A DNA stretch of 40,672 nucleotides, taken from IMG/VR virus record IMGVR_UViG_3300019758_000005, positions 1-40,672 of that record; one strand, written 5' to 3'. The translations under genes were made by a program, and so were the position numbers. This document shows, one piece after another, positions 8,269 through 40,672 of the stretch (its first letter is position 1; each line of letters begins with the position of its first letter). Below the pieces are notes generated by a model, which worked only from the letters and a program-made list of their open reading frames with translations, ran no database searches and had not been told where the DNA came from. The stretch comes from a virus.

Positions 8269-8293
8269 CGCCAATATCAATTTGGCGGTTTTT
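8269..8293 (+). terminator. Hairpin plus T-run immediately before the RBS of the 8312 gene
   Basis: CGCCAA-tatcaat-TTGGCG followed by gTTTTT. Confidence 0.5.
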
Positions 8294-8311
8294 ATTAATA
8301 GGAGAGCAAAG

Positions 8312-8635
8312 ATGATAACCACAATAAGAGAGCTGTCAGATCAGACTGGCATCCCATCTGGAACCATTCATGCAAGAATAAAAGTTTACCCGATAAATAC
8401 AGAAGCTACCCGTCAAGGCTGTAATGAGCTTGTTTACCCTGTTGGCACATTAGAGGCATGGCATGCAAAAGTTGACAATATTATTTCAGGTTCTACTCGG
8501 TCGCTCACTGGCTTTATTAAGGCTGGCGCATGGGCAAAAAAGAAAGGCAAACCATTAGAAAGTAACCCGTATTGTTATAACACCGAGATTAAGCAGTACT
8601 GCGCATGGGCTGCAGGCTGGCATGATGCAAGATAA
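8312..8635 (+). CDS. HTH domain fused to an Rmf/CrpP-like C-terminal domain
   Basis: N-terminus IRELSDQTGIPSGTIHARI is HTH-like. C-terminus AWAKKKGKPLESNPYCYNTEIKQYCAWAAGWHDA follows the ribosome-modulation-factor / CrpP pattern (G..NPY...W..GW.DA). RBS GGAGAG, ATG 8312. Confidence 0.6.
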   Translation: MITTIRELSDQTGIPSGTIHARIKVYPINTEATRQGCNELVYPVGTLEAWHAKVDNIISGSTRSLTGFIKAGAWAKKKGKPLESNPYCYNTEIKQYCAWAAGWHDAR

Positions 8636-8648
8636 TAGGAGAGATAGA

Positions 8649-8891
8649 ATGTTAACAGTAAGAGTGAAAATTATAGATTACGACAAAGCTAGTAATACAT
8701 GTACAGCTCAATCACTTAACGGCGATATTTTTGAGTTAGATCCGTTTGTTGGTTGTGCTATTAGTATGACAGATGACGACTACAAGAAAGGTAAAGGGTT
8801 TGATATTGTAGGGAGGAGTTACTTGCTTACTGAATACACAGTTTACCGAGATAACGTGGTGCCTGACGAGGGAGGAATGATAGCTATATAG
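8649..8891 (+). CDS. Hypothetical protein
   Basis: RBS AGGAGAG, ATG 8649 (the track start at 8622 lacks an RBS). Confidence 0.55.
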   Translation: MLTVRVKIIDYDKASNTCTAQSLNGDIFELDPFVGCAISMTDDDYKKGKGFDIVGRSYLLTEYTVYRDNVVPDEGGMIAI

Positions 8892-8945
8892 CATTTCAAC
8901 TAGCAAGGGAATTCAACAAAAAAAAGATGCCCCAAAAAATAATAC

Positions 8946-8973
8946 TTGACGCACCCGCAAGAGGTGCTATCTT
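8946..8973 (+). promoter_or_regulatory. Sigma70-type promoter P2 (TTGACG-N16-TGcTATCTT), GGTGCTA family
   Basis: -35 at 8946-8951 and -10 at 8968-8973. The spacer shares CCCGCA and GGTGC with P1. Confidence 0.65.
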
Positions 8974-9001
8974 TACATAAACACACAAAAGGAGAGTACA
9001 A

Positions 9002-9172
9002 ATGAAATTCTTTATATTTATTATTTTAATACCAATGATTGCAGGCTTTGTTACGGGTCAGAATGGAGCTTCTTATTTTGTATTAGACGAGCTACCAATG
9101 GCTTTAGCTATAAATATTCCAATATGTATTATTTCTAATCTATTCTATTGGTCGACAGGAGAGTACAAATGA
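9002..9172 (+). CDS. Small membrane protein (56 aa, two hydrophobic segments; below the track cutoff)
   Basis: Hand translation: MKFFIFIILIPMIAGFVTG...MALAINIPICIISNLFYW. RBS GGAGAG. Its stop overlaps the next ATG (ATGA). Confidence 0.55.
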   Translation: MKFFIFIILIPMIAGFVTGQNGASYFVLDELPMALAINIPICIISNLFYWSTGEYK

Positions 9173-9681
9173 AAATACCAATGTACATGCTAATCATCTG
9201 GGTTGCGGTCGTATTCGGCGCGTTTACGTATGACGCGTTCGGTGACGAGGTTGAATTCCGTGCTACGGATATGACTTACACATGGGGAGAGAATCACAGC
9301 TTCCCTGTCACGCTTTACCAAGTTGGCTATACCAAGTACGTCACTAATGATGTGGGTTTGCGCATAATGGCAGGCGAATCAACCAAGGCAAGTGACGGGC
9401 ATACATTTAGCTCGCAAATGACACACTTCTTCACATTTAACGTGCATCGTCGTGTGCGCTTGAGTCAAAATATTAGCTTTCAGTATGGTGTTAACTATTC
9501 TGAGTATAAAGAACATGGCAAGCCGGACACTGGCACAGGCTATGCGGTTGCTGTGCAGTACAAACTTAATCCTAGTGTTGCGTTGAAGCTGTCTTATGAT
9601 GAGTACTATGAGAAATACAGTGAGCACTACGGCTTAGAGGAAACAAAAGGCTTGGGCTTGTCAGTTGTGGGAGTGTTCTGA
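9169..9681 (+). CDS. Outer-membrane beta-barrel protein (OmpX/Ail/Lom-like size) with signal peptide
   Basis: Signal-like N-terminus MKIPMYMLIIWVAVVFGAFTYDAFG, alternating hydrophobic strands, and a C-terminal beta-signal ending in Phe (GLGLSVVGVF). Start set at ATG 9169 with RBS GGAGAG. Confidence 0.65.
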   Translation: MKIPMYMLIIWVAVVFGAFTYDAFGDEVEFRATDMTYTWGENHSFPVTLYQVGYTKYVTNDVGLRIMAGESTKASDGHTFSSQMTHFFTFNVHRRVRLSQNISFQYGVNYSEYKEHGKPDTGTGYAVAVQYKLNPSVALKLSYDEYYEKYSEHYGLEETKGLGLSVVGVF

Positions 9682-9727
9682 TGAATTCTAATGCGGCTAT
9701 ATTTAAGATGATGAGAGGAGAGAGCAA

Positions 9728-10351
9728 ATGAAATACAAATGTATTAAAAGGCAGCCAGCTTGGGAAAACGTAAAAGTAGGCGAAGTCTATGAAGGCGAGG
9801 TATTAGACGGCCTACTTAAAATAGATGATGGTAGCTACTATGTAAAAGAGGGCTTCTTCGTGGCGGCAGAACCAGAATGGCTACCAAATCCAATGACAGG
9901 TGAGTGTCCTGTGCCTGATGGACATGATGTTGAAATAATGTTGAAAAATAATGTAAGGCATCGAGACAATGATCCAGAAGGATGGAATTGGAAAGCTATT
10001 GGTGATAAAGCAATTGCTCAATTCATAGACTGGACAGCATTCAGTCAGCAGCAAGCCAAGCCAACCCCAAACCAACAACCAGCACATGAATTCCTAGAAA
10101 AAGCACTAGGGCACATGCAAGACCGTGCGACCACATACGACTCAGCGAAAGGTGAGCGCAGCATGGGTAAAACTGTTGCTATGTTCAACTCTATGTATGA
10201 GCAAGAGCTAACAGAAGAGCAAGGCTGGGCGTTTATGTGCTTGCTTAAACTGGTTCGTACAAGTCAAGGCGATTTCCGCGCTGACAATTATGAAGATTTA
10301 GCGGCGTATGCTGGCCTTATGGGTGAGTCTGCTAGCCAAGGGGGTGAGTGA
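9728..10351 (+). CDS. Hypothetical protein with DUF6378-like C-terminal domain
   Basis: C-terminal DRATTYDSAKGERSMGKTVAMFNSMY...MCLLKLVRTSQGDFRADNYEDLAAYAG resembles a conserved phage domain recalled from memory. Not verified. Confidence 0.5.
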   Translation: MKYKCIKRQPAWENVKVGEVYEGEVLDGLLKIDDGSYYVKEGFFVAAEPEWLPNPMTGECPVPDGHDVEIMLKNNVRHRDNDPEGWNWKAIGDKAIAQFIDWTAFSQQQAKPTPNQQPAHEFLEKALGHMQDRATTYDSAKGERSMGKTVAMFNSMYEQELTEEQGWAFMCLLKLVRTSQGDFRADNYEDLAAYAGLMGESASQGGE

Positions 10352-11841
10352 TGATATGCCCATCATGCGAGTCAGACAACCTGAAAACACACTCAGCAAA
10401 CCCGCCACGATGGATATGTGGCGACTGCTCAAAGACAACGCGCAAGCCGTTAGACGGTTATCAGTTCCCCGTAGTAGAAAAAACCAGCGACCGCTTCGTA
10501 ATTACATGGGCGCAGAACGCAACGGCCCCACACGCAAGCACACTGCGTACGCTTAAGCAGTATTGCAAGCACAACAGGGCTCAGTTATTGGTCATACCAG
10601 GTCGTTACCGTAATGCCACTAGCGTATGGACTAAGGCGCAAGAAGATCAAGATTGGTGGGATAAAGAGCTAACGCCACACCTGCTAGGCCATGAGCTTGA
10701 GCTTAACCGTAACTTAGTCGTTGGCGGTGATGTGAGGCTAACACCTACCGCGGCGAATCCATTACAGGGCATGAAGACGATTAGCGGTCATAAGTCATAC
10801 ATTCTAGGCCATCCACAGATTGCATTCGAGACAGTGGCAACGCCTCAAAGTAAGCTGGCTAAGATTGTGACGACTACTGGCGCAATCACTAAGATGAACT
10901 ACAGCGACACAACGGCTGGCAAGAAAGGCGAGTTCCATCATGAGCTAGGCGCAACACTGGTTGAACTGGATGGAAGTAAGTTCCATATCCGCCAGCTTAT
11001 TGCTAACGGGCACGGGGTTATCTATGACCTAGACAAACGCTATGATGGCAAGACAATCAAATCTAAGCAGCGTGCTGAGTTCTTTGTGTCTGGTGATTTC
11101 CATGGGAAGTATCTTGACGAACAAGTAAAGGCAGCTTGGTGGACTGGTAAGGACAGCCTGTTCAACCTAATCAAACCAAAGGCGCAAGTGTTTCATGATG
11201 TGTTCGATGGTTATTTTGGTTCGCACCATCACAGGCACGACCCGTTTTTAGGTGTAAAGAAGCATTTTAAGGGTGAAAACGATGGCCAAAACGAATTAAT
11301 CGACACATTACAGAAACTTGATGACTGCTTATTAGCTGATAAAAACTACATTACGAAGTCAAACCATGATGAACACTTAGACCGCTGGCTAAAAGAAACA
11401 GATTGGCGCAAAGATCCGGCTAATGCTGAGTTCTACCTTGAAACGGCGCTAGAGATAGTTAAGGTCATCAAGCACGGTGGAAGCTTTGACCCGCTGGAGT
11501 ACTGGGCTAATAAGTCGGGACTGGCTAAGAAAGCTATATTCCTCAAGCGCAGCGACACGGTAAGCGTCAAGGATTACGTGTTGTCAATGCATGGGGACAA
11601 AGGCAGCAATGGCGCTCGGGGTTCACTCAAGGGCTTTGATGCTATCGGTTCGCGTAGTGTTACAGGCCATAGTCATTCACCAGGAAAAGAAAAAGGCGCT
11701 TGGCGTGTTGGTATTAGTTGCATTTATGGTTTAGAGTACGCAGTAGGTAGTCCGTCTAGCTGGATGCAAACGGGCGTTATTGGATATGCTAACGGCAAGT
11801 GTTCGCTGATTAGTTGTATTGATGGCAGTTACCGCGCCTAG
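10348..11841 (+). CDS. Zinc-ribbon plus calcineurin-like metallophosphoesterase (possible nuclease)
   Basis: N-terminal CPSC...CGDC. The C-terminal half carries ordered MPE motifs: SGDFHG, HDVFDG, SNHDEH, MHGDKG, TGHSHSPG. Confidence 0.65.
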   Translation: MMICPSCESDNLKTHSANPPRWICGDCSKTTRKPLDGYQFPVVEKTSDRFVITWAQNATAPHASTLRTLKQYCKHNRAQLLVIPGRYRNATSVWTKAQEDQDWWDKELTPHLLGHELELNRNLVVGGDVRLTPTAANPLQGMKTISGHKSYILGHPQIAFETVATPQSKLAKIVTTTGAITKMNYSDTTAGKKGEFHHELGATLVELDGSKFHIRQLIANGHGVIYDLDKRYDGKTIKSKQRAEFFVSGDFHGKYLDEQVKAAWWTGKDSLFNLIKPKAQVFHDVFDGYFGSHHHRHDPFLGVKKHFKGENDGQNELIDTLQKLDDCLLADKNYITKSNHDEHLDRWLKETDWRKDPANAEFYLETALEIVKVIKHGGSFDPLEYWANKSGLAKKAIFLKRSDTVSVKDYVLSMHGDKGSNGARGSLKGFDAIGSRSVTGHSHSPGKEKGAWRVGISCIYGLEYAVGSPSSWMQTGVIGYANGKCSLISCIDGSYRA

Positions 11842-30500: not shown

Positions 30501-30693
30501 ACCGATAACTTTTAACGTGCCATTTGTTGATATTCAATCAATCACTGTGGCGGCCAATGGGACTACATTTAGAAATGCAATATATGATTTTATTGATACC
30601 CCTAACCCTACAGGGTTTGATGTGTATCTATTCGATGAGAACGGCAACGAGCTATCTAGCGGCGAAGTGTCATGGCAAGCGAGGGGCGTGTAA
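27595..30693 (+). CDS. Host-specificity / central tail fibre protein (J-like, Phage-tail_3 type) with FN3-like repeats
   Basis: 1032 aa. PRRIIYGEARVGGQVIF near the N-terminus is typical of J-like proteins. Three FN3-like segments fall at about residues 460-730. GTG start with RBS AAGGGGG. Confidence 0.8.
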   Translation: MGLFDKVGDRLSDARATLGDALDLIAPVTFGVIDALEYLGNELVKALTPDIDYSDRKVNTRGPATPRRIIYGEARVGGQVIFTDSTGDDDRNLRMVIAFAGHSCEEIGDIYINDDLVTDPKFDGLVSVFKQPQTGVNETLNFANEYAGRTNYLYEQIAYVFIVFKYDQEVFAGVPNVTAIVKGKDTIYDPRTGQSGYTDNAALCMLDFLRTERKLSDDLIDMTSWANAADICDEQVAAVNGGTEPRFTLNGTLIRNGSKLQALTKMAVNSGIYPAREEGIYKAVPLVYTAPAVDAVVDETDIIGDIQITTGNGKQDKINTIVGTYIDAATNYEQVEYPSIQTPNYETEDREVLQQSVDYQLVNSGTQCRRLSKIALEQSRRGITVSFNGRYRVLQYPVGSRIKLNYSAFGWTEKIFRVVSRTVSPQSGVNVILKEDDPAIYSWEEGDALATVVPPFLNLPNPNVVGAPFDLEVTETLYQANTQAAVKVRAAFTWSANDASIRHYELEGSYQGGPYRALSSFIAGNEFKFDDLQVGTWVFRVRGVNSIGVKSPYAVLAYNMLGKTAPPSDVTGFKGTVRPFGIEISWDEVPDLDIDLYEIRLGLSWDTGTVLQRMSALNWSWETRPTGTERLFIKAIDTSGNYSQNASEAQIVILAPKAPSPVSATVIDNNVALRWIDATSSFSIAKYEVRKGETFESSALLYEVTGTGKQVQEVAKGTYTYWVRGIDIKGNAGPAAGATANVDQPPDFVLQSDANLDLTTATVVNMADTISAGITIDNDTITIDNDAITIDSDVMSVWVGPCNTTETWAEHFEKLPGYVLPTTIDNDTITIDNDTLLIDNDYQSIQQLQINNGFNSYLQPTPASASLEVVEDYQGILALSRIQVTPDVEVLSGAPTATYTTSYSTDGITYTDVAGTEAVGINFRYVKVRVDITSTSELDLLRINHLRVRLDVKLKTDAGRVVVSSTGGTPITFNVPFVDIQSITVAANGTTFRNAIYDFIDTPNPTGFDVYLFDENGNELSSGEVSWQARGV
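29914..30120 (+). repeat. Two clusters of three 7-aa (21-nt) repeats, TIDND-type, inside the J-like gene
   Basis: 29914-29976 encodes ITIDNDT ITIDNDA ITIDSDV. 30058-30120 encodes TTIDNDT ITIDNDT LLIDNDY. Codon choices differ between the units. Confidence 0.85.
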
Positions 30694-31571
30694 TGGCTGC
30701 TGATTTTAATAAGCCCACAATTACTGGCGATGCGTATGTAGACGTACTTGGCGAAATACGCGCCCAGTTTGAAGTCGTTAGTACTATGTCATACGGTGAC
30801 GCGCTTAATACCAAAGTTGGCGCTGTACAATTCTTGGATGGTTCTTTACAGAAATGGAGCGGTTCCAGTTTTGATGTTGTACCAGTATCAATCACAGGTG
30901 GCGGCACAGGGGCAAGTACTGCTGCCGGTGCTCGAACTGCTTTGAATGTAAATGAGAAAGGAACATTAGCCGCACAGGTTCGCAGTAATGCAGAATCGGA
31001 TGCTTTGTATGTGCCGCAATCGCGGACTATTAGCACGGCTGGCGCATTAAATGGCGGGAACTCGCTTGACAGCAATATCAGCTTAACCGTGAATAGCGCA
31101 ACGACTAGCCAGCAGGGTGTTGTGCAGTTGTTTAACGGTCTTAATAGTACTAGCACCACTCAGGCTTTGACTGCGGCTCAGGGGAAGGTTTTGAATGATA
31201 TACAATATAGTCAAGCATCAAATATTGTATACCTTTTGGATTTTGCTTCCGTAACTATTGATTACCAAGAAGCTACAATATCAGCTAGTGGGACACTTAC
31301 AGGTGGCGATGCAAAAATAGTAAAAGTCGGGAATATGGTGACTATTAGCGGTAAATTCTTGCATTCAAGTTCAACTTTGCGGGCTAGTAATACAGGTGCC
31401 ATTCCCTCATGGGGCCGCCCTGATTCAGATGGCGCTCTAAACTGCTATGTGTTCGAGGATGGCTCAAATACAGGTCGGCGTGTCTTTGTGAATAGTAATG
31501 GCCAAATATCTTTCTTTTATACGGCCTCTGTGACGGATACGCTTGGCTTTACAATCTCTTACACAATATAG
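30693..31571 (+). CDS. Tail fibre protein
   Basis: Start at ATG 30693 (TAATG overlap, RBS GAGGGG). GGGTGASTAAGARTALNV and SQQGVVQL...TTQALTAAQGKVL motifs are common in phage fibres. Confidence 0.7.
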   Translation: MAADFNKPTITGDAYVDVLGEIRAQFEVVSTMSYGDALNTKVGAVQFLDGSLQKWSGSSFDVVPVSITGGGTGASTAAGARTALNVNEKGTLAAQVRSNAESDALYVPQSRTISTAGALNGGNSLDSNISLTVNSATTSQQGVVQLFNGLNSTSTTQALTAAQGKVLNDIQYSQASNIVYLLDFASVTIDYQEATISASGTLTGGDAKIVKVGNMVTISGKFLHSSSTLRASNTGAIPSWGRPDSDGALNCYVFEDGSNTGRRVFVNSNGQISFFYTASVTDTLGFTISYTI

Positions 31572-31579
31572 GAACCAAC

Positions 31580-32365
31580 ATGGCAATACAAACATTAAAC
31601 GTAGGCTCAGGCCCAGGCGCTGGAGACGGCGAAGGGCTACGAAGCTCACAGGTAAAAGTAAACTCAAATTTTGCAGTGGCTGAAAACGCTGCTTCAAAGA
31701 TTGTGCAGGCATCTAGTGCGGATACGACTGCTGACAAAGTTATGATGTCAGACTACGCATGGCGAGGCGCTCAACTAGGTGATTATTTCACCTACGGCGG
31801 AACGGCTAATGCCATTACGCTAACCAGTGCCAACCTAAAAGCAGGTGGCACGCTTATAGCTGGCATGAAGTTTAGGTTTAAAGCCACTACCACAAACACC
31901 GGCGCAACTACTATTGCAGTTGATGGCGGCTCAGCTACGGCTTGCGTTACTCCGACAGGCGTTGCGTTACCGGCTGGTTTTATTCGCACGGATGTGATTA
32001 CAGAGTGCGAGTATGATGGTTCGAGTTTTGTTGTTAGTCGCAAAGTTGAAAGTGGTAGTAATGCAAGCGGGGACTGGACGAAGTGGGAGGATGGAAGCCT
32101 CTCTATGCGCGTTTCTGGTACTAGCAATCTAAATATTACAAGCGCGTCAGCACTTGGCGGTTTTTATGGTGATATACTAGGCATTGCGTTTCCAGTCGCT
32201 GTTGTAGGCACTCCATCCATATCCCCATCTGGGAATGATTCATGCGGTGATGTAGGAGCTGCTTCATATACAACAACCACTTTTTCCCTTAGATTTAGGA
32301 CTGTATCTAGCTCTAGCGCTGTACCAGTTAGTAAAGCCGCGATAATAACAGGCAAATGGTACTAA
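31580..32365 (+). CDS. Second tail fibre / receptor-binding protein
   Basis: N-terminus LNVGSGPGAGDGEGLRSSQVKVNSNFA matches the common fibre N-terminal pattern (G.GD.lR....kvN.Nf). Confidence 0.6.
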   Translation: MAIQTLNVGSGPGAGDGEGLRSSQVKVNSNFAVAENAASKIVQASSADTTADKVMMSDYAWRGAQLGDYFTYGGTANAITLTSANLKAGGTLIAGMKFRFKATTTNTGATTIAVDGGSATACVTPTGVALPAGFIRTDVITECEYDGSSFVVSRKVESGSNASGDWTKWEDGSLSMRVSGTSNLNITSASALGGFYGDILGIAFPVAVVGTPSISPSGNDSCGDVGAASYTTTTFSLRFRTVSSSSAVPVSKAAIITGKWY

Positions 32366-32389: not shown

Positions 32390-32755
32390 TCATAGGCGTA
32401 TTCCTGCTTGGGCTGCTTGTGGCTGGTTTTGGGTATGTTGTGGCGAAGTGGTTAGACGGTCAAAGCCGAGGCCTACAACTGCGGCAAGTAAAACAAGAAG
32501 CACACCGCCGGAAACCTTCCAATATGCGTTATTGGTAGCCTGGTTCTTCTCCAAATCTGTGACACGGGGAGCAATCTGATCTAGTGTTTTATCTATCTTG
32601 TCAAGCATTTTGTCTTGTGACTTGCGCATCAAGCTCACTTCATCTACAACTTTCGTAAAATGCAAGTCTGTCCGCTCATTGCTCTGTCTTATACTTTCGT
32701 GTATTACAATCAAGTGGTTGTCCAATTCTCTTCTCGTTACGTGTTCGGGTTCCAT
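32390..32755 (-). CDS. Membrane-anchored coiled-coil protein (XhlA-like topology)
   Basis: Lone minus-strand ORF with a coiled-coil N-terminal part and one C-terminal TM (VSGGVLLVLLAAVVGLGF). ATG 32755 preferred over TTG 32758. Confidence 0.5.
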   Translation of the reverse strand: MEPEHVTRRELDNHLIVIHESIRQSNERTDLHFTKVVDEVSLMRKSQDKMLDKIDKTLDQIAPRVTDLEKNQATNNAYWKVSGGVLLVLLAAVVGLGFDRLTTSPQHTQNQPQAAQAGIRL

Positions 32756-32843
32756 CAAACATGCCTTAAAAATTAGTGTATATTGTAACCTTGATTATAC
32801 ATTAAACAATCGGTAAACAGTACCAAGTGGGTAAGGATGTGAC

Positions 32844-33197
32844 ATGGGCGACATAAGTAAGGATTTTAATAGATCGGAATTTGAGTGCAACTGCGGTGAA
32901 TGCGGGCTTGATACAGTGGACGCTGCCTTGCTGGCGCTATTACAGGATGTGCGAGACAAGTTTGGGCCGTTGAAGGTAACTAGCGGGCATCGTTGTGAGG
33001 ATTATAATAACTTTGTAGGCGGCAGTAAGAATAGCTACCACTTGCAAGGACGTGCTGCTGATATTGTACCGCTAAAGGCTGATATAATCGAAGTGGCAAA
33101 TTACATTGAATCAATCAACCATCAAGGCGGTATGGGCGTTTATGACACGTTCGTTCATCTTGATACACGATCATATAAAGCCCGGTGGAGGGGTTAA
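32844..33197 (+). CDS. Endolysin, peptidase M15 family (zinc D,D- or L,D-peptidase)
   Basis: SGHRC...NSYHLQGRAADI...FVHLD supplies the H..D..H zinc ligand pattern of M15 endolysins. Confidence 0.85.
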   Translation: MGDISKDFNRSEFECNCGECGLDTVDAALLALLQDVRDKFGPLKVTSGHRCEDYNNFVGGSKNSYHLQGRAADIVPLKADIIEVANYIESINHQGGMGVYDTFVHLDTRSYKARWRG

Positions 33198-33199
33198 TT

Positions 33200-33382
33200 A
33201 TGGAATACTTGAACATTTTACTAGCAGTAATAGGCGGTGCGTCTCTAATCCTTAAAGGCTTAGAAATGATCGCAGGCATTACGCCAAGCACTAAAGACGA
33301 CATCTATGTCAGCAAGGCCAAGAAATACGTTGGCTACGCTGCTGCGTTCCTTGAGAAGATTTCGCTTGGCTTGAAAAAGTGA
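33200..33382 (+). CDS. Holin candidate
   Basis: 60 aa with an N-terminal TM (LNILLAVIGGASLIL) and a charged C-terminus. RBS GGAGGGG. Lies between the endolysin and spanin genes. Confidence 0.6.
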   Translation: MEYLNILLAVIGGASLILKGLEMIAGITPSTKDDIYVSKAKKYVGYAAAFLEKISLGLKK

Positions 33383-33582
33383 AAACCCTAGCACGGCTAA
33401 TCAGTGTACTGCTCTCAATGTGGGAGCAGTACCAAGCCGAACGAAAGGCAAATAAACGGGCGAGGGAACTGGATGCGTTACGCAAAGAACCTGTTAATTG
33501 GTATCGTAATCATTTTGGCGGGGTGCGTGACGTGCCCAACAAAGCCGATGATGCCGATAAAGCCAATACTAAGCCCGACTGA
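33379..33582 (+). CDS. i-spanin candidate (unusually short, 67 aa)
   Basis: GTG start overlapping the holin stop (GTGA). N-terminal hydrophobic segment LARLISVLLSMW followed by a charged helix. Contains the start of the o-spanin frame. Confidence 0.5.
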   Translation: MKTLARLISVLLSMWEQYQAERKANKRARELDALRKEPVNWYRNHFGGVRDVPNKADDADKANTKPD

Positions 33583-33673
33583 ACAAGAAGACGGCTCCCT
33601 GCTGTTTAGCAGGGATGATGCCGTAAAGCTGGGGGTTTATGTTATTGAGTTGGAGTCTGGTTACGAGCCATAA
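33473..33673 (+). CDS. o-spanin lipoprotein
   Basis: MRYAKNLLIGIVIILAGC provides a lipobox (LAGC), followed by a Pro-rich mature part. RBS GAGGGA. Overlaps the i-spanin gene in another frame. Confidence 0.7.
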   Translation: MRYAKNLLIGIVIILAGCVTCPTKPMMPIKPILSPTEQEDGSLLFSRDDAVKLGVYVIELESGYEP

Positions 33674-35389: not shown

Positions 35390-35417
35390 TTTACATAATA
35401 TCTGTGGGTGCTATAGT
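35390..35417 (+). promoter_or_regulatory. Sigma70-type promoter P4 (TTTACA-N16-TGcTATAGT), GGTGCTA family
   Basis: -35 at 35390-35395 and -10 at 35412-35417, preceded by GGGTGC. Its leader shares ACACACAAAAGGA with the P2 leader. Confidence 0.65.
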
Positions 35418-35455
35418 TACATTACTGAAACGAAACACACAAAAGGAAAGAGAAA

Positions 35456-35638
35456 ATGAACCAAGCACAAATTGAACTAGCAAAAATTATCGGTGACGAA
35501 GCAATCGCAACTATCGCTAAAGCACAAGGTGCAACAATTGAAGAGGTTACAACGGCAATACAAGAAGGTAATAAAGTAGTAACAGATCAATTTAAAAAAC
35601 TGATTGAACTAGGAATTAAAACGGTGGCGGCTCTATGA
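35456..35638 (+). CDS. Hypothetical protein
   Basis: 60-aa ORF, the first gene downstream of P4. Confidence 0.5.
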   Translation: MNQAQIELAKIIGDEAIATIAKAQGATIEEVTTAIQEGNKVVTDQFKKLIELGIKTVAAL

Positions 35639-39886: not shown

Positions 39887-40665
39887 AATAAGCTCTCAAC
39901 GCTACTGCCTTTTCTTAGATTGGCGTCCGCCCATATTGGTCGTAAATTAGTTAGGCAATTAATTACAGCTGGGTCGGTAACACCATTTTTTAAGTGCTCA
40001 GCTATTGGTATTATGTGATCTATGTGCCATTCTTTTCTGTTCTCCCAGCTCATGCCTTTTAAAAATTGGCGCTCTATGTGCGTTTTTAAATCCTCGCAGG
40101 TATACCCAAGCAGGGCCTCATACTTTTCGCGCCCACCCTTCCAATTGGTTAGTATTCGTTTTAGTGATCTACGAATAAACATGCTTTCTGGGTTCGCATT
40201 ATTCCACGCTGATGAAGCTGCCGTTGCTTTCTCCGAATTCGCTTTTCGCCAAGCCGTGTTGGATGCTTTTCTTTTTTCTGGATTCGCTTTATTCCATGCT
40301 AAATTTCTTGCTCTTGATCTTTCCTTGTTAGCTTCATACCAAGCTGCCTTGTTCGCCTTCACCTTCTCAGGGTTGGCAGCTTTCCAAGCTGCCCACTGAG
40401 CAATTGCTTTCTCTGGGTTCGCTGCCAGCCAACAAGCTTTGCTAGCTTTTATCTTTTCTGAGTTTTCTTTTCGGTATTTTGCAGCGGTAGATTTTGCTTT
40501 ATCTGGATTCGCAGCGCGCCACGCTGCACTTTTTGCTATTGCGCATTCAACGCAATGGCCTCCAGATAGATACCGTTCAGTAATATGCCCACGCTTACAT
40601 GGCTTTCCAGTAAAAAAGAATTTTAGATTTTGTTCTTTTGCTTCTTTCTTGGATATAATATTCAT
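39883..40665 (-). CDS. HNH endonuclease with an N-terminal Cys/His cluster and eight 15-aa tandem repeats
   Basis: C-terminal EWHIDHIIPIA...NLRPIWADANLRKG is an HNH motif. N-terminal CKRGH...HCVEC. Central repeats are of the AW.KANPEK.KA type. Confidence 0.8.
   Translation of the reverse strand: MNIISKKEAKEQNLKFFFTGKPCKRGHITERYLSGGHCVECAIAKSAAWRAANPDKAKSTAAKYRKENSEKIKASKACWLAANPEKAIAQWAAWKAANPEKVKANKAAWYEANKERSRARNLAWNKANPEKRKASNTAWRKANSEKATAASSAWNNANPESMFIRRSLKRILTNWKGGREKYEALLGYTCEDLKTHIERQFLKGMSWENRKEWHIDHIIPIAEHLKNGVTDPAVINCLTNLRPIWADANLRKGSSVESLL
40183..40530 (-). repeat. Eight tandem 45-nt (15-aa) coding repeats within the HNH gene
   Basis: An aromatic residue (W49, Y64, W79, W94, W109, W124, W139, W154) recurs every 15 residues, followed by an ANPEK-like motif. 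Confidence 0.8.
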
Positions 40666-40672
40666 TTTGATC
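40550..40672. repeat. Terminal overlap, right copy (identical to 1-123)
   Basis: See the left copy. Identity was checked over all 123 bases. Confidence 0.9.

Follow-up and report, generated by a model that had tools for sequence, protein, structure and literature searches.

The window analyzed here is the IMG/VR record IMGVR_UViG_3300019758_000005, a complete virus record of 40,672 bp with direct terminal repeats from an uncultured marine-type phage, and we describe a short accessory cassette that lies upstream of its terminase genes. The cassette consists of a sigma-70-type promoter (P2, 8946–8973), an optional gene for a small membrane protein of 56 aa (open reading frame 1, ORF1; 9002–9172) and a gene for a 170-aa protein (ORF2; 9169–9681), all on the plus strand. 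We are highly confident that ORF2 codes for an 8-stranded outer-membrane barrel, and equally so in the anatomy of the cassette around it, in which small genes are exchanged at an 18-nt junction that combines a ribosome-binding site (RBS) with a start codon. Its role is assigned more tentatively: we favor, as possible rather than probable, an early accessory envelope locus whose barrel serves phage exclusion or 'lytic conversion'.

The barrel protein and its family

ORF2 starts at the ATG at 9169 and overlaps the end of ORF1 in an ATGA (9169–9172), and both genes lie where the preliminary description of this DNA had placed them. An upstream TTG at 9148 was rejected as a start; the homologues use an ATG preceded by an RBS. 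By inspection, residues 1–25 (9169–9243) form a signal peptide of the Sec/signal peptidase I type, with an n-region of MK, a 17-residue hydrophobic core and a small-x-small cleavage site (A-F-G before D-E, i.e. before D26) that is conserved in homologues (T-F-G, A-Y-S). The signal helix (residues 5–20) is modeled apart from the barrel with a low pLDDT (predicted local distance difference test score), and structural matches to the protein start at residue 25. ORF2 contains no cysteine and hence no lipobox.

The mature protein (residues 26–170; 9244–9681 with the stop codon) is predicted to be a closed antiparallel barrel. AlphaFold2, given a 12-sequence alignment, models ORF2 as an N-terminal helix and 8 strands (pLDDT 86), and the best structural match by VIA-align is NspA (Z 18.6; root-mean-square deviation, rmsd, 2.2 over 142 of 145 mature residues). 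Right below it ranks a designed 8-strand transmembrane barrel (rmsd 1.4), and the next matches are the OprF N-terminal domain (Z 17.2), OmpW (17.0) and OmpA (16.2), with PagL (15.1) and PagP (9.0) scoring lower; Foldseek gives OmpA, OmpW, Ail and OmpX with E = 1e-6 to 1e-4. The sequence ends with strand 8 at residue 170 in an aromatic beta-signal (...GLSVVGVF), the last residue being phenylalanine in 10 of 12 close homologues and leucine in the other two, and there is no periplasmic peptidoglycan-binding domain of the OmpA kind. The model and the structural matches together bear out the earlier proposal of an OmpX/Ail/Lom-sized 8-strand barrel with a signal peptide and a C-terminal phenylalanine.

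Sequence profiles give a less clear picture. ORF2 falls below every Pfam cut-off, including those for PF13505 (OMP_b-brl; 18.0 bits against 28.7) and for BBP2_2 (23.2 against 23.7), PF13505 is matched by 20 of 34 family members (best E 4.4e-13), and OmpX chains in the PDB match the ORF2 family profile weakly (E = 7.7e-4), a likeness also found with protein-language-model features. PF06316 (Ail/Lom/OmpX) is absent at E <= 1 for ORF2 and is absent among the families matched by the 34 members. PHROGs, PADLOC and NCBIfam returned nothing usable for the barrel or for the 56-aa protein.

With the group that includes NspA, OmpA, OprF, OmpW and OmpX (clan MBB, PF13505), ORF2 shares the fold (Z 16–18.6, rmsd 1.9–2.5 over 122–145 residues), the signal peptide, the C-terminal phenylalanine and a polar interior; it differs in its sub-threshold Pfam scores, in a family found on phage-like contigs only, in very short loops L1, L3 and L4 and in having no periplasmic domain. 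Loops 1 and 4 have three residues each, whereas loop 2 varies among members and insertions occur in the turn that links strands 5 and 6. Just three residues, D120, E157 and T159, are unchanged in all 34 diverse members, and Y113, Y147, K149 and F45 are nearly so; by the lipid-facing alternation pattern D120, E157, T159 and Y113 face the barrel interior near its outer mouth.

Eleven close homologues share 51–95% identity, with 45 invariant columns across the clade, and 49 representatives of the family were found at E <= 0.001. All of the family contexts that were read are phage-like, with primase, terminase and portal genes, and by these contexts the family is phage-borne. No match was found in 50,697 deposited phage records, either by tblastn of the barrel or by megablast of 8600–10400, and a search of 185,579 species genomes gave one barrel match only, on a 35-kb phage-like contig of a metagenome-assembled genome (MAG). 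This contig (L016, CAXBML010000029.1) is binned into an 'uncultured Coxiellaceae' MAG and has the gene order of the phage clade, with a gene resembling ribosome modulation factor (RMF), the promoter, the barrel gene and a gene similar to T5 A1; from its gene content it is probably a phage contig, and its binning unreliable as a host call.

The junction, the variable slot and the promoter

The 18-nt sequence AGGAGAGTACAAATGAAA occurs at 8990–9007 and again at 9157–9174, and is the sole exact 18-mer found twice in the genome, the terminal repeat aside. An exact duplication of the RBS and start region had been described before as a 17-mer; the duplication is real, while its length is 18 nt and its second copy begins at 9157. 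Copy 1 consists of the Shine-Dalgarno sequence GGAGAG, a 5-nt spacer and ATG AAA, and copy 2 comprises the end of ORF1 (G-E-Y-K, stop) together with the barrel gene's RBS and start codon. The gene for a DUF6378 protein is preceded by a third copy (9716–9733, plus strand) that differs at two positions. Part of the identity arises because GGAGAG with a 5-nt spacer and ATG is the usual RBS of this phage, standing before at least nine of its genes. In all arrangements the upstream gene ends in G-E-x-K or G-E-x-Q and a stop codon, and these codons double as the GGAGAG, spacer and ATGA that belong to the next gene.

Exchange at this site can be followed in relatives, which comprise the compared loci (numbered L001 onwards) and contigs from public metagenome runs (X2, X3 and X4); the X2 and X3 junction contigs derive from relatives and not from this genome. 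In L009 the 56-aa gene ends with the identical 18 letters and is joined there to a gene for a 70-aa membrane protein. An 85-nt contig from X2 passes from the promoter through copy 1 directly into barrel codons 3–9, an exact loss of the 167-nt unit. A 1,072-nt contig from X3 matches the window as far as 9007 and resumes at 9157 with 191 other letters between, precisely the length that is unique to the 70-aa gene between these landmarks in L009 (360–550), and in a second X3 contig the end of an 81-aa gene runs into the 56-aa gene, with the join at 8989. Together the contigs show in outline, at the level of sequence, that the RBS/start 18-mer is a recombination site for small-gene exchange. The idea that the initiation region was copied when the two genes were assembled also finds support here, in relatives that carry the barrel directly after copy 1 or another, length-matched gene in between. 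GAATTC and GTCGAC sites at the junctions were considered as signs of engineering and rejected, the natural relative L009 having the same GTCGAC.

The last five codons of each gene (GGA GAG xxx AAA TGA, read as G-E-x-K) carry the RBS and start of the next, so that all gene boundaries are near-identical over about 18 nt, and small genes are inserted, deleted or swapped exactly there. The probable agents of the exchange are annealing recombination functions of the phage itself: the genome encodes a RecE-like exonuclease and a Sak4-like annealase, and annealing proteins of this kind recombine short, diverged sequences (PMC5499656, PMC5928155). A swap site within the last codons of the upstream gene means that an inserted gene is expressed at once, which makes this a clean natural example of gene exchange, and the junction design may serve phage engineering and the annotation of small accessory genes.

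The order of genes in the clade is primase, small genes, a gene with an RMF-like C-terminus, promoter, barrel cassette, DUF6378 gene, T5 A1-like gene and terminase. The slot between the promoter and the barrel gene is empty in L001, L002, L004, L016 and L019, holds the 70-aa membrane protein gene in L006, the 56-aa gene in the window and L013, both of these in L009–L012, an 81-aa Cys-rich, soluble-looking ORF in L008, and other short ORFs in L003. The barrel is fixed in this clade, and the 56-aa gene is missing from most barrel-carrying relatives. Because most barrel loci lack it and the content of the slot varies, the 56-aa gene and the barrel gene are, on this comparison, neighbors in a variable slot and not a dedicated pair; the earlier view of the two as such a pair does not stand, ORF1 being exchanged for unrelated small ORFs that include a soluble-looking one.

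Nor is the transcription unit confined to these two genes, as had been thought. The barrel gene is followed by a 16-codon remnant (9681–9731, plus strand) of a 53–56-aa acidic ORF, shared with L009 and L010, in which an in-frame deletion has left both overlaps intact, that of its start with the barrel stop and the ATGA shared with the gene that follows. Most relatives have the full acidic ORF at this place and often a 95-aa ORF as well; since the window keeps only the scar, the acidic ORF is dispensable for the role of the barrel. The translationally coupled gene that follows encodes the DUF6378 protein (9728–10351, plus strand; 207 aa; Pfam PF19905, E = 1.4e-10), and the next, coupled in the same way, a T5 A1-like protein (10348–11841, plus strand; 497 aa; PHROG 1745), the last gene before the terminase genes. 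No terminator-like site was found after 9681.

Some of these features recall morons: the promoter is present and conserved and the small ORFs vary, while there is no terminator after 9681, the next gene is coupled and the barrel is fixed. Like the morons and linker-mediated exchanges of mosaic phages (PMC3594210), the cassette is an accessory block with its own promoter, variable presence and short conserved boundaries. It differs in not being a self-contained unit of promoter, gene and terminator, and in that the RBS and start themselves are the exchange site, read in frame as the last codons of the upstream gene; coupling thereby survives every swap.

The ORF1 gene is, by its conservation, real but optional. 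Its four homologues share 71–93% identity, a length of 54–56 aa and an invariant core, lie upstream of a barrel gene in all contexts retrieved, and give a ratio of nonsynonymous to synonymous polymorphism (pN/pS) of 0.33–0.47. The two hydrophobic segments described earlier are confirmed by Kyte-Doolittle maxima of 2.9 and 2.0, and AlphaFold2 models helices at residues 4–21 and 24–51 with low confidence (pLDDT 64). The first segment may be a cleavable signal peptide, the candidate sites before the polar residue being V-T-G (before Q in the window), V-T-A and A-T-A (before H in L013); if cleaved, the product would be a single-pass protein, and if not, a two-helix hairpin. A feature-based atlas search for ORF1 gave scores of 0.83 only, which is chance level, and modeling of the mature barrel and the 56-aa protein as a complex scored 0.00 in both runs, below the mark and evidence neither for nor against an association.

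P2 is located where it was first described, and comprises a -35 hexamer TTGACG (8946–8951), a 16-nt spacer and a -10 hexamer TATCTT (8968–8973), the latter extended by a TG at 8965–8966 (TGC TATCTT). A generic promoter scan of the region found 11 sites against 9.0 ± 2.9 expected, which is not above chance; P2 is supported instead by its conservation: of 13 related loci, 10 (L001, L002, L003, L004, L006, L008, L009, L013, L016 and L019) have these hexamers and this spacing at the start of the cassette, which makes 11 of 14 with the window included. In L002, L004 and L016 the spacer sequence has diverged despite the same -35, TGn-10 and spacing. P2-like promoters are found elsewhere in the genome at 8011, 35390 and 36380, and P2 is of the same type as the promoters that head the non-structural gene blocks. 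The leader of the 35390 promoter (window positions 35390–35460) is very like that of P2 (…AACACACAAAAGGA…), which suggests that promoter plus leader is a unit repeated in the genome.

The spacers of P2 (8951–8967, GCACC/GGTGC) and of the promoter P1 (8014–8032, CACCC/GGGTG) can each form a hairpin with a 5-bp GC-rich stem and a 7-nt loop. In close relatives substitutions are confined to the loop, and the hairpin is absent from more distant ones; it may act as an operator, or weakly terminate transcription of the gene upstream.

Upstream of P2 lies a gene for a 117-aa protein (8282–8635) with an N-terminal winged-helix match and a C-terminal RMF match, both below Pfam cut-offs, and its conserved end (…W-A-A-G-W-H-D-A) stands directly 5' of the cassette promoter in many relatives. 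Between this gene and P2 the window has an 89-aa ORF (8622–8891) that most relatives lack, their promoter following directly after the stop of the RMF-like gene. Contigs from X2 and X4 lack about 290–307 nt at this site, and a homologue of the 89-aa ORF is found at another place in L002.

Possible roles of the cassette

By its anatomy the locus is an operon, driven by a conserved host-type promoter and made up of the small-ORF slot, the conserved gene for the Sec-exported barrel, the DUF6378 gene and the T5 A1-like gene. In the reading that we tentatively favor, the barrel would be made early, with the host Sec and beta-barrel assembly (BAM) machineries still working, and take its place in the outer membrane of the infected host, altering the surface so as to exclude further phages or progeny that bind to debris. 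The small inner-membrane proteins would be independent envelope-directed additions and not partners of the barrel. We infer early expression because the barrel is exported and BAM-dependent, and because its gene shares an operon, under a host-type promoter, with the counterpart of T5 A1. Exclusion by the barrel would then be a variant of the 'lytic conversion' of T5 Llp or of the receptor masking of lambda Lom.

Llp is an early product of a virulent phage and blocks the receptor FhuA (PMC9586334; 10.64898/2026.03.26.714494). The proposed likeness is that of an envelope protein, made by a virulent phage soon after infection, that changes the infected cell's outer membrane (PMC9586334), and a counterpart of T5 A1 is encoded here, in the barrel operon. 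However, Llp is a small inner-leaflet lipoprotein, whereas ORF2 is a barrel without cysteine or lipobox, and llp lies beside the receptor-binding protein gene, as the ORF2 gene does not, leaving a likeness in logic only.

Lom is an 8-stranded barrel that is reported, as cited in a paper on huge phages (10.64898/2026.10.24.761521), to mask LamB. Lom (Ail/Lom, PF06316) and ORF2 are both phage-encoded 8-stranded barrels of similar size, with a signal peptide, encoded by an accessory gene with its own host-type promoter. They differ in that ORF2 has no PF06316 match, comes from a phage without a visible lysogeny module, and has its gene in a translationally coupled operon that precedes the terminase genes rather than in the tail-fiber region, with no terminator after it. 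ORF2 is thus Lom-like in fold and logic, outside Ail/Lom by sequence, and belongs to a family of its own in uncultured phages.

Phage barrels, known from lambda (Lom), have lately been catalogued in huge phages, and their roles are mostly unproven; the survey finds 1,603 barrel proteins in huge phages, in which 8-stranded outer-membrane proteins are common (10.64898/2026.10.24.761521). These too are phage 8-stranded barrels from aquatic settings for which receptor interference has been proposed, but they come from genomes of >200 kb against 40.7 kb here, and the likeness is one of description (10.64898/2026.10.24.761521). What distinguishes the present case is the small, apparently virulent genome, the conserved promoter and a junction that permits swaps without loss of expression. 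The compact, sequence-distinct family, in phages of roughly 40 kb in which no lysogeny genes were seen, could be used to test whether virulent phages remodel the outer membrane with barrels.

Several points weigh against a role in exclusion or against the locus being an early envelope module. The case for early expression comes down to a sigma-70-like promoter, the barrel gene is not adjacent to receptor-binding protein genes, unlike T5 llp, and the conserved interior residues look like a polar structural core of the OmpA/OmpX type rather than an active site or a conserved external binding site. Distant barrel members are placed differently, convergently next to lysis genes in L020 and among head genes in L022. 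The slot also hosts soluble-looking ORFs, and 'envelope locus' may overstate its coherence.

A more elaborate form of exclusion, which we consider doubtful, is a plug-in array of a virulent phage in which the barrel masks the receptor, swappable inner-membrane proteins block entry at the second membrane, and the modules are shuffled at the 18-nt junction with their coupling kept. The 56-aa and 70-aa products do resemble T4 Imm, P22 SieA and HK97 gp15 as small inner-membrane proteins, probably from an early promoter; they have no sequence similarity to any named family, and the resemblance is one of size and topology only.

Slightly less probable still is that the barrel acts in envelope maintenance or host physiology, stabilizing the outer membrane in the manner of OmpA or OmpX, altering vesiculation or adhesion, or admitting a small solute, with no exclusion of phages. 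Its nearest folds are structural or surface barrels (NspA, the N-terminal domains of OmpA and OprF, and OmpW), the conserved polar interior is like that of OmpA/OmpX-type barrels, and huge phages express many outer-membrane proteins of unknown role (10.64898/2026.10.24.761521). However, the protein ends with the barrel and lacks a periplasmic peptidoglycan-binding domain, and the neighborhood holds no pointers to transport or metabolism. Admission of a solute fits poorly too, as the packed polar core makes 8-stranded barrels such as OmpA and OmpX poor channels.

A role in lysis is unlikely, and the least likely of those suggested in the preliminary description, because the genome has a complete endolysin/holin/spanin cassette at 32844–33673. 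Here the small inner-membrane protein or proteins and the barrel would time lysis or disrupt the outer membrane, like an antiholin or a lipoprotein-free spanin. The size and two-helix layout of the 56-aa protein fit a holin or antiholin, but its gene lies 23 kb from the endolysin gene and from the separate, complete lysis cassette, most barrel-carrying relatives have no 56-aa gene, and the promoter is of the type that heads non-structural gene blocks. In the distant relative L020, on the other hand, the barrel gene adjoins, in convergent orientation, an M15 endolysin gene and two small ORFs. Identity of ORF2 as an o-spanin was rejected; the protein has neither a cysteine nor a lipobox, and the spanin pair lies elsewhere (33379–33673).

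It is very improbable that the slot is a recombination hotspot whose small ORFs, the 56-aa gene included, are passengers without selected function. The highly variable content of the slot, unrelated ORFs included, and the decay of the downstream acidic ORF to a 16-codon scar here and in L009 are what neutral cargo would leave, but the barrel is intact across the clade at the identities given above, and ORF1 has kept its length and an invariant core, with the pN/pS given above.

Least of all do we expect an outer-membrane enzyme of the PagL or PagP kind that modifies lipid A and so alters lipopolysaccharide, the likely receptor: PagL is among the structural matches, with PagP weaker, but non-enzymatic barrels outscore PagL, neither the PagL nor the PagP family is matched in sequence, and a PagL-like enzyme was rejected on the finding that no His or Ser is invariant across the 34 members, H93 being lost in distant ones.

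Genome setting and host

The genome encodes a RecE-like exonuclease, a single-stranded DNA-binding protein, a Sak4-like annealase, a primase-polymerase, a helicase, terminase, portal and tail genes (the tail-fiber genes at 30672–32365), and a lysis cassette. No integrase or repressor was found among the ORFs examined in the genome, in agreement with the earlier remark that no lysogeny module is visible. The terminal repeat is exact and 123 bp long (1–123 = 40550–40672), and circularization of the genome would bring the minus-strand replication and recombination genes at its two ends together into a single block.

The whole stretch is present in one public run, labeled microbial-mat metagenome, from which this DNA may have come, and its relatives are found in runs labeled marine or outdoor metagenome. 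The terminase large subunit is 67–70% identical to those from phages of Pseudomonas, Yersinia, Pseudoalteromonas and Idiomarinaceae, and the cultured relative by this protein, Pseudoalteromonas phage PHS21, shows no synteny upstream of the terminase genes. From its gene content the phage has a Gram-negative host, since it carries an i-spanin/o-spanin pair with a lipobox, and the host is probably a gammaproteobacterium.

The lysis cassette begins with an M15-type endolysin gene (32844–33197, 117 aa), whose end is overlapped by the gene for a holin candidate (33185–33382, 65 aa). An i-spanin-like ORF follows (33379–33582, 67 aa), and an o-spanin of 89 aa with an L-A-G-C lipobox is encoded in an out-of-frame overlap with it, inside 33404–33673. 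Just upstream of the cassette, on the minus strand, is a 122-aa ORF with a C-terminal membrane anchor (32390–32758).

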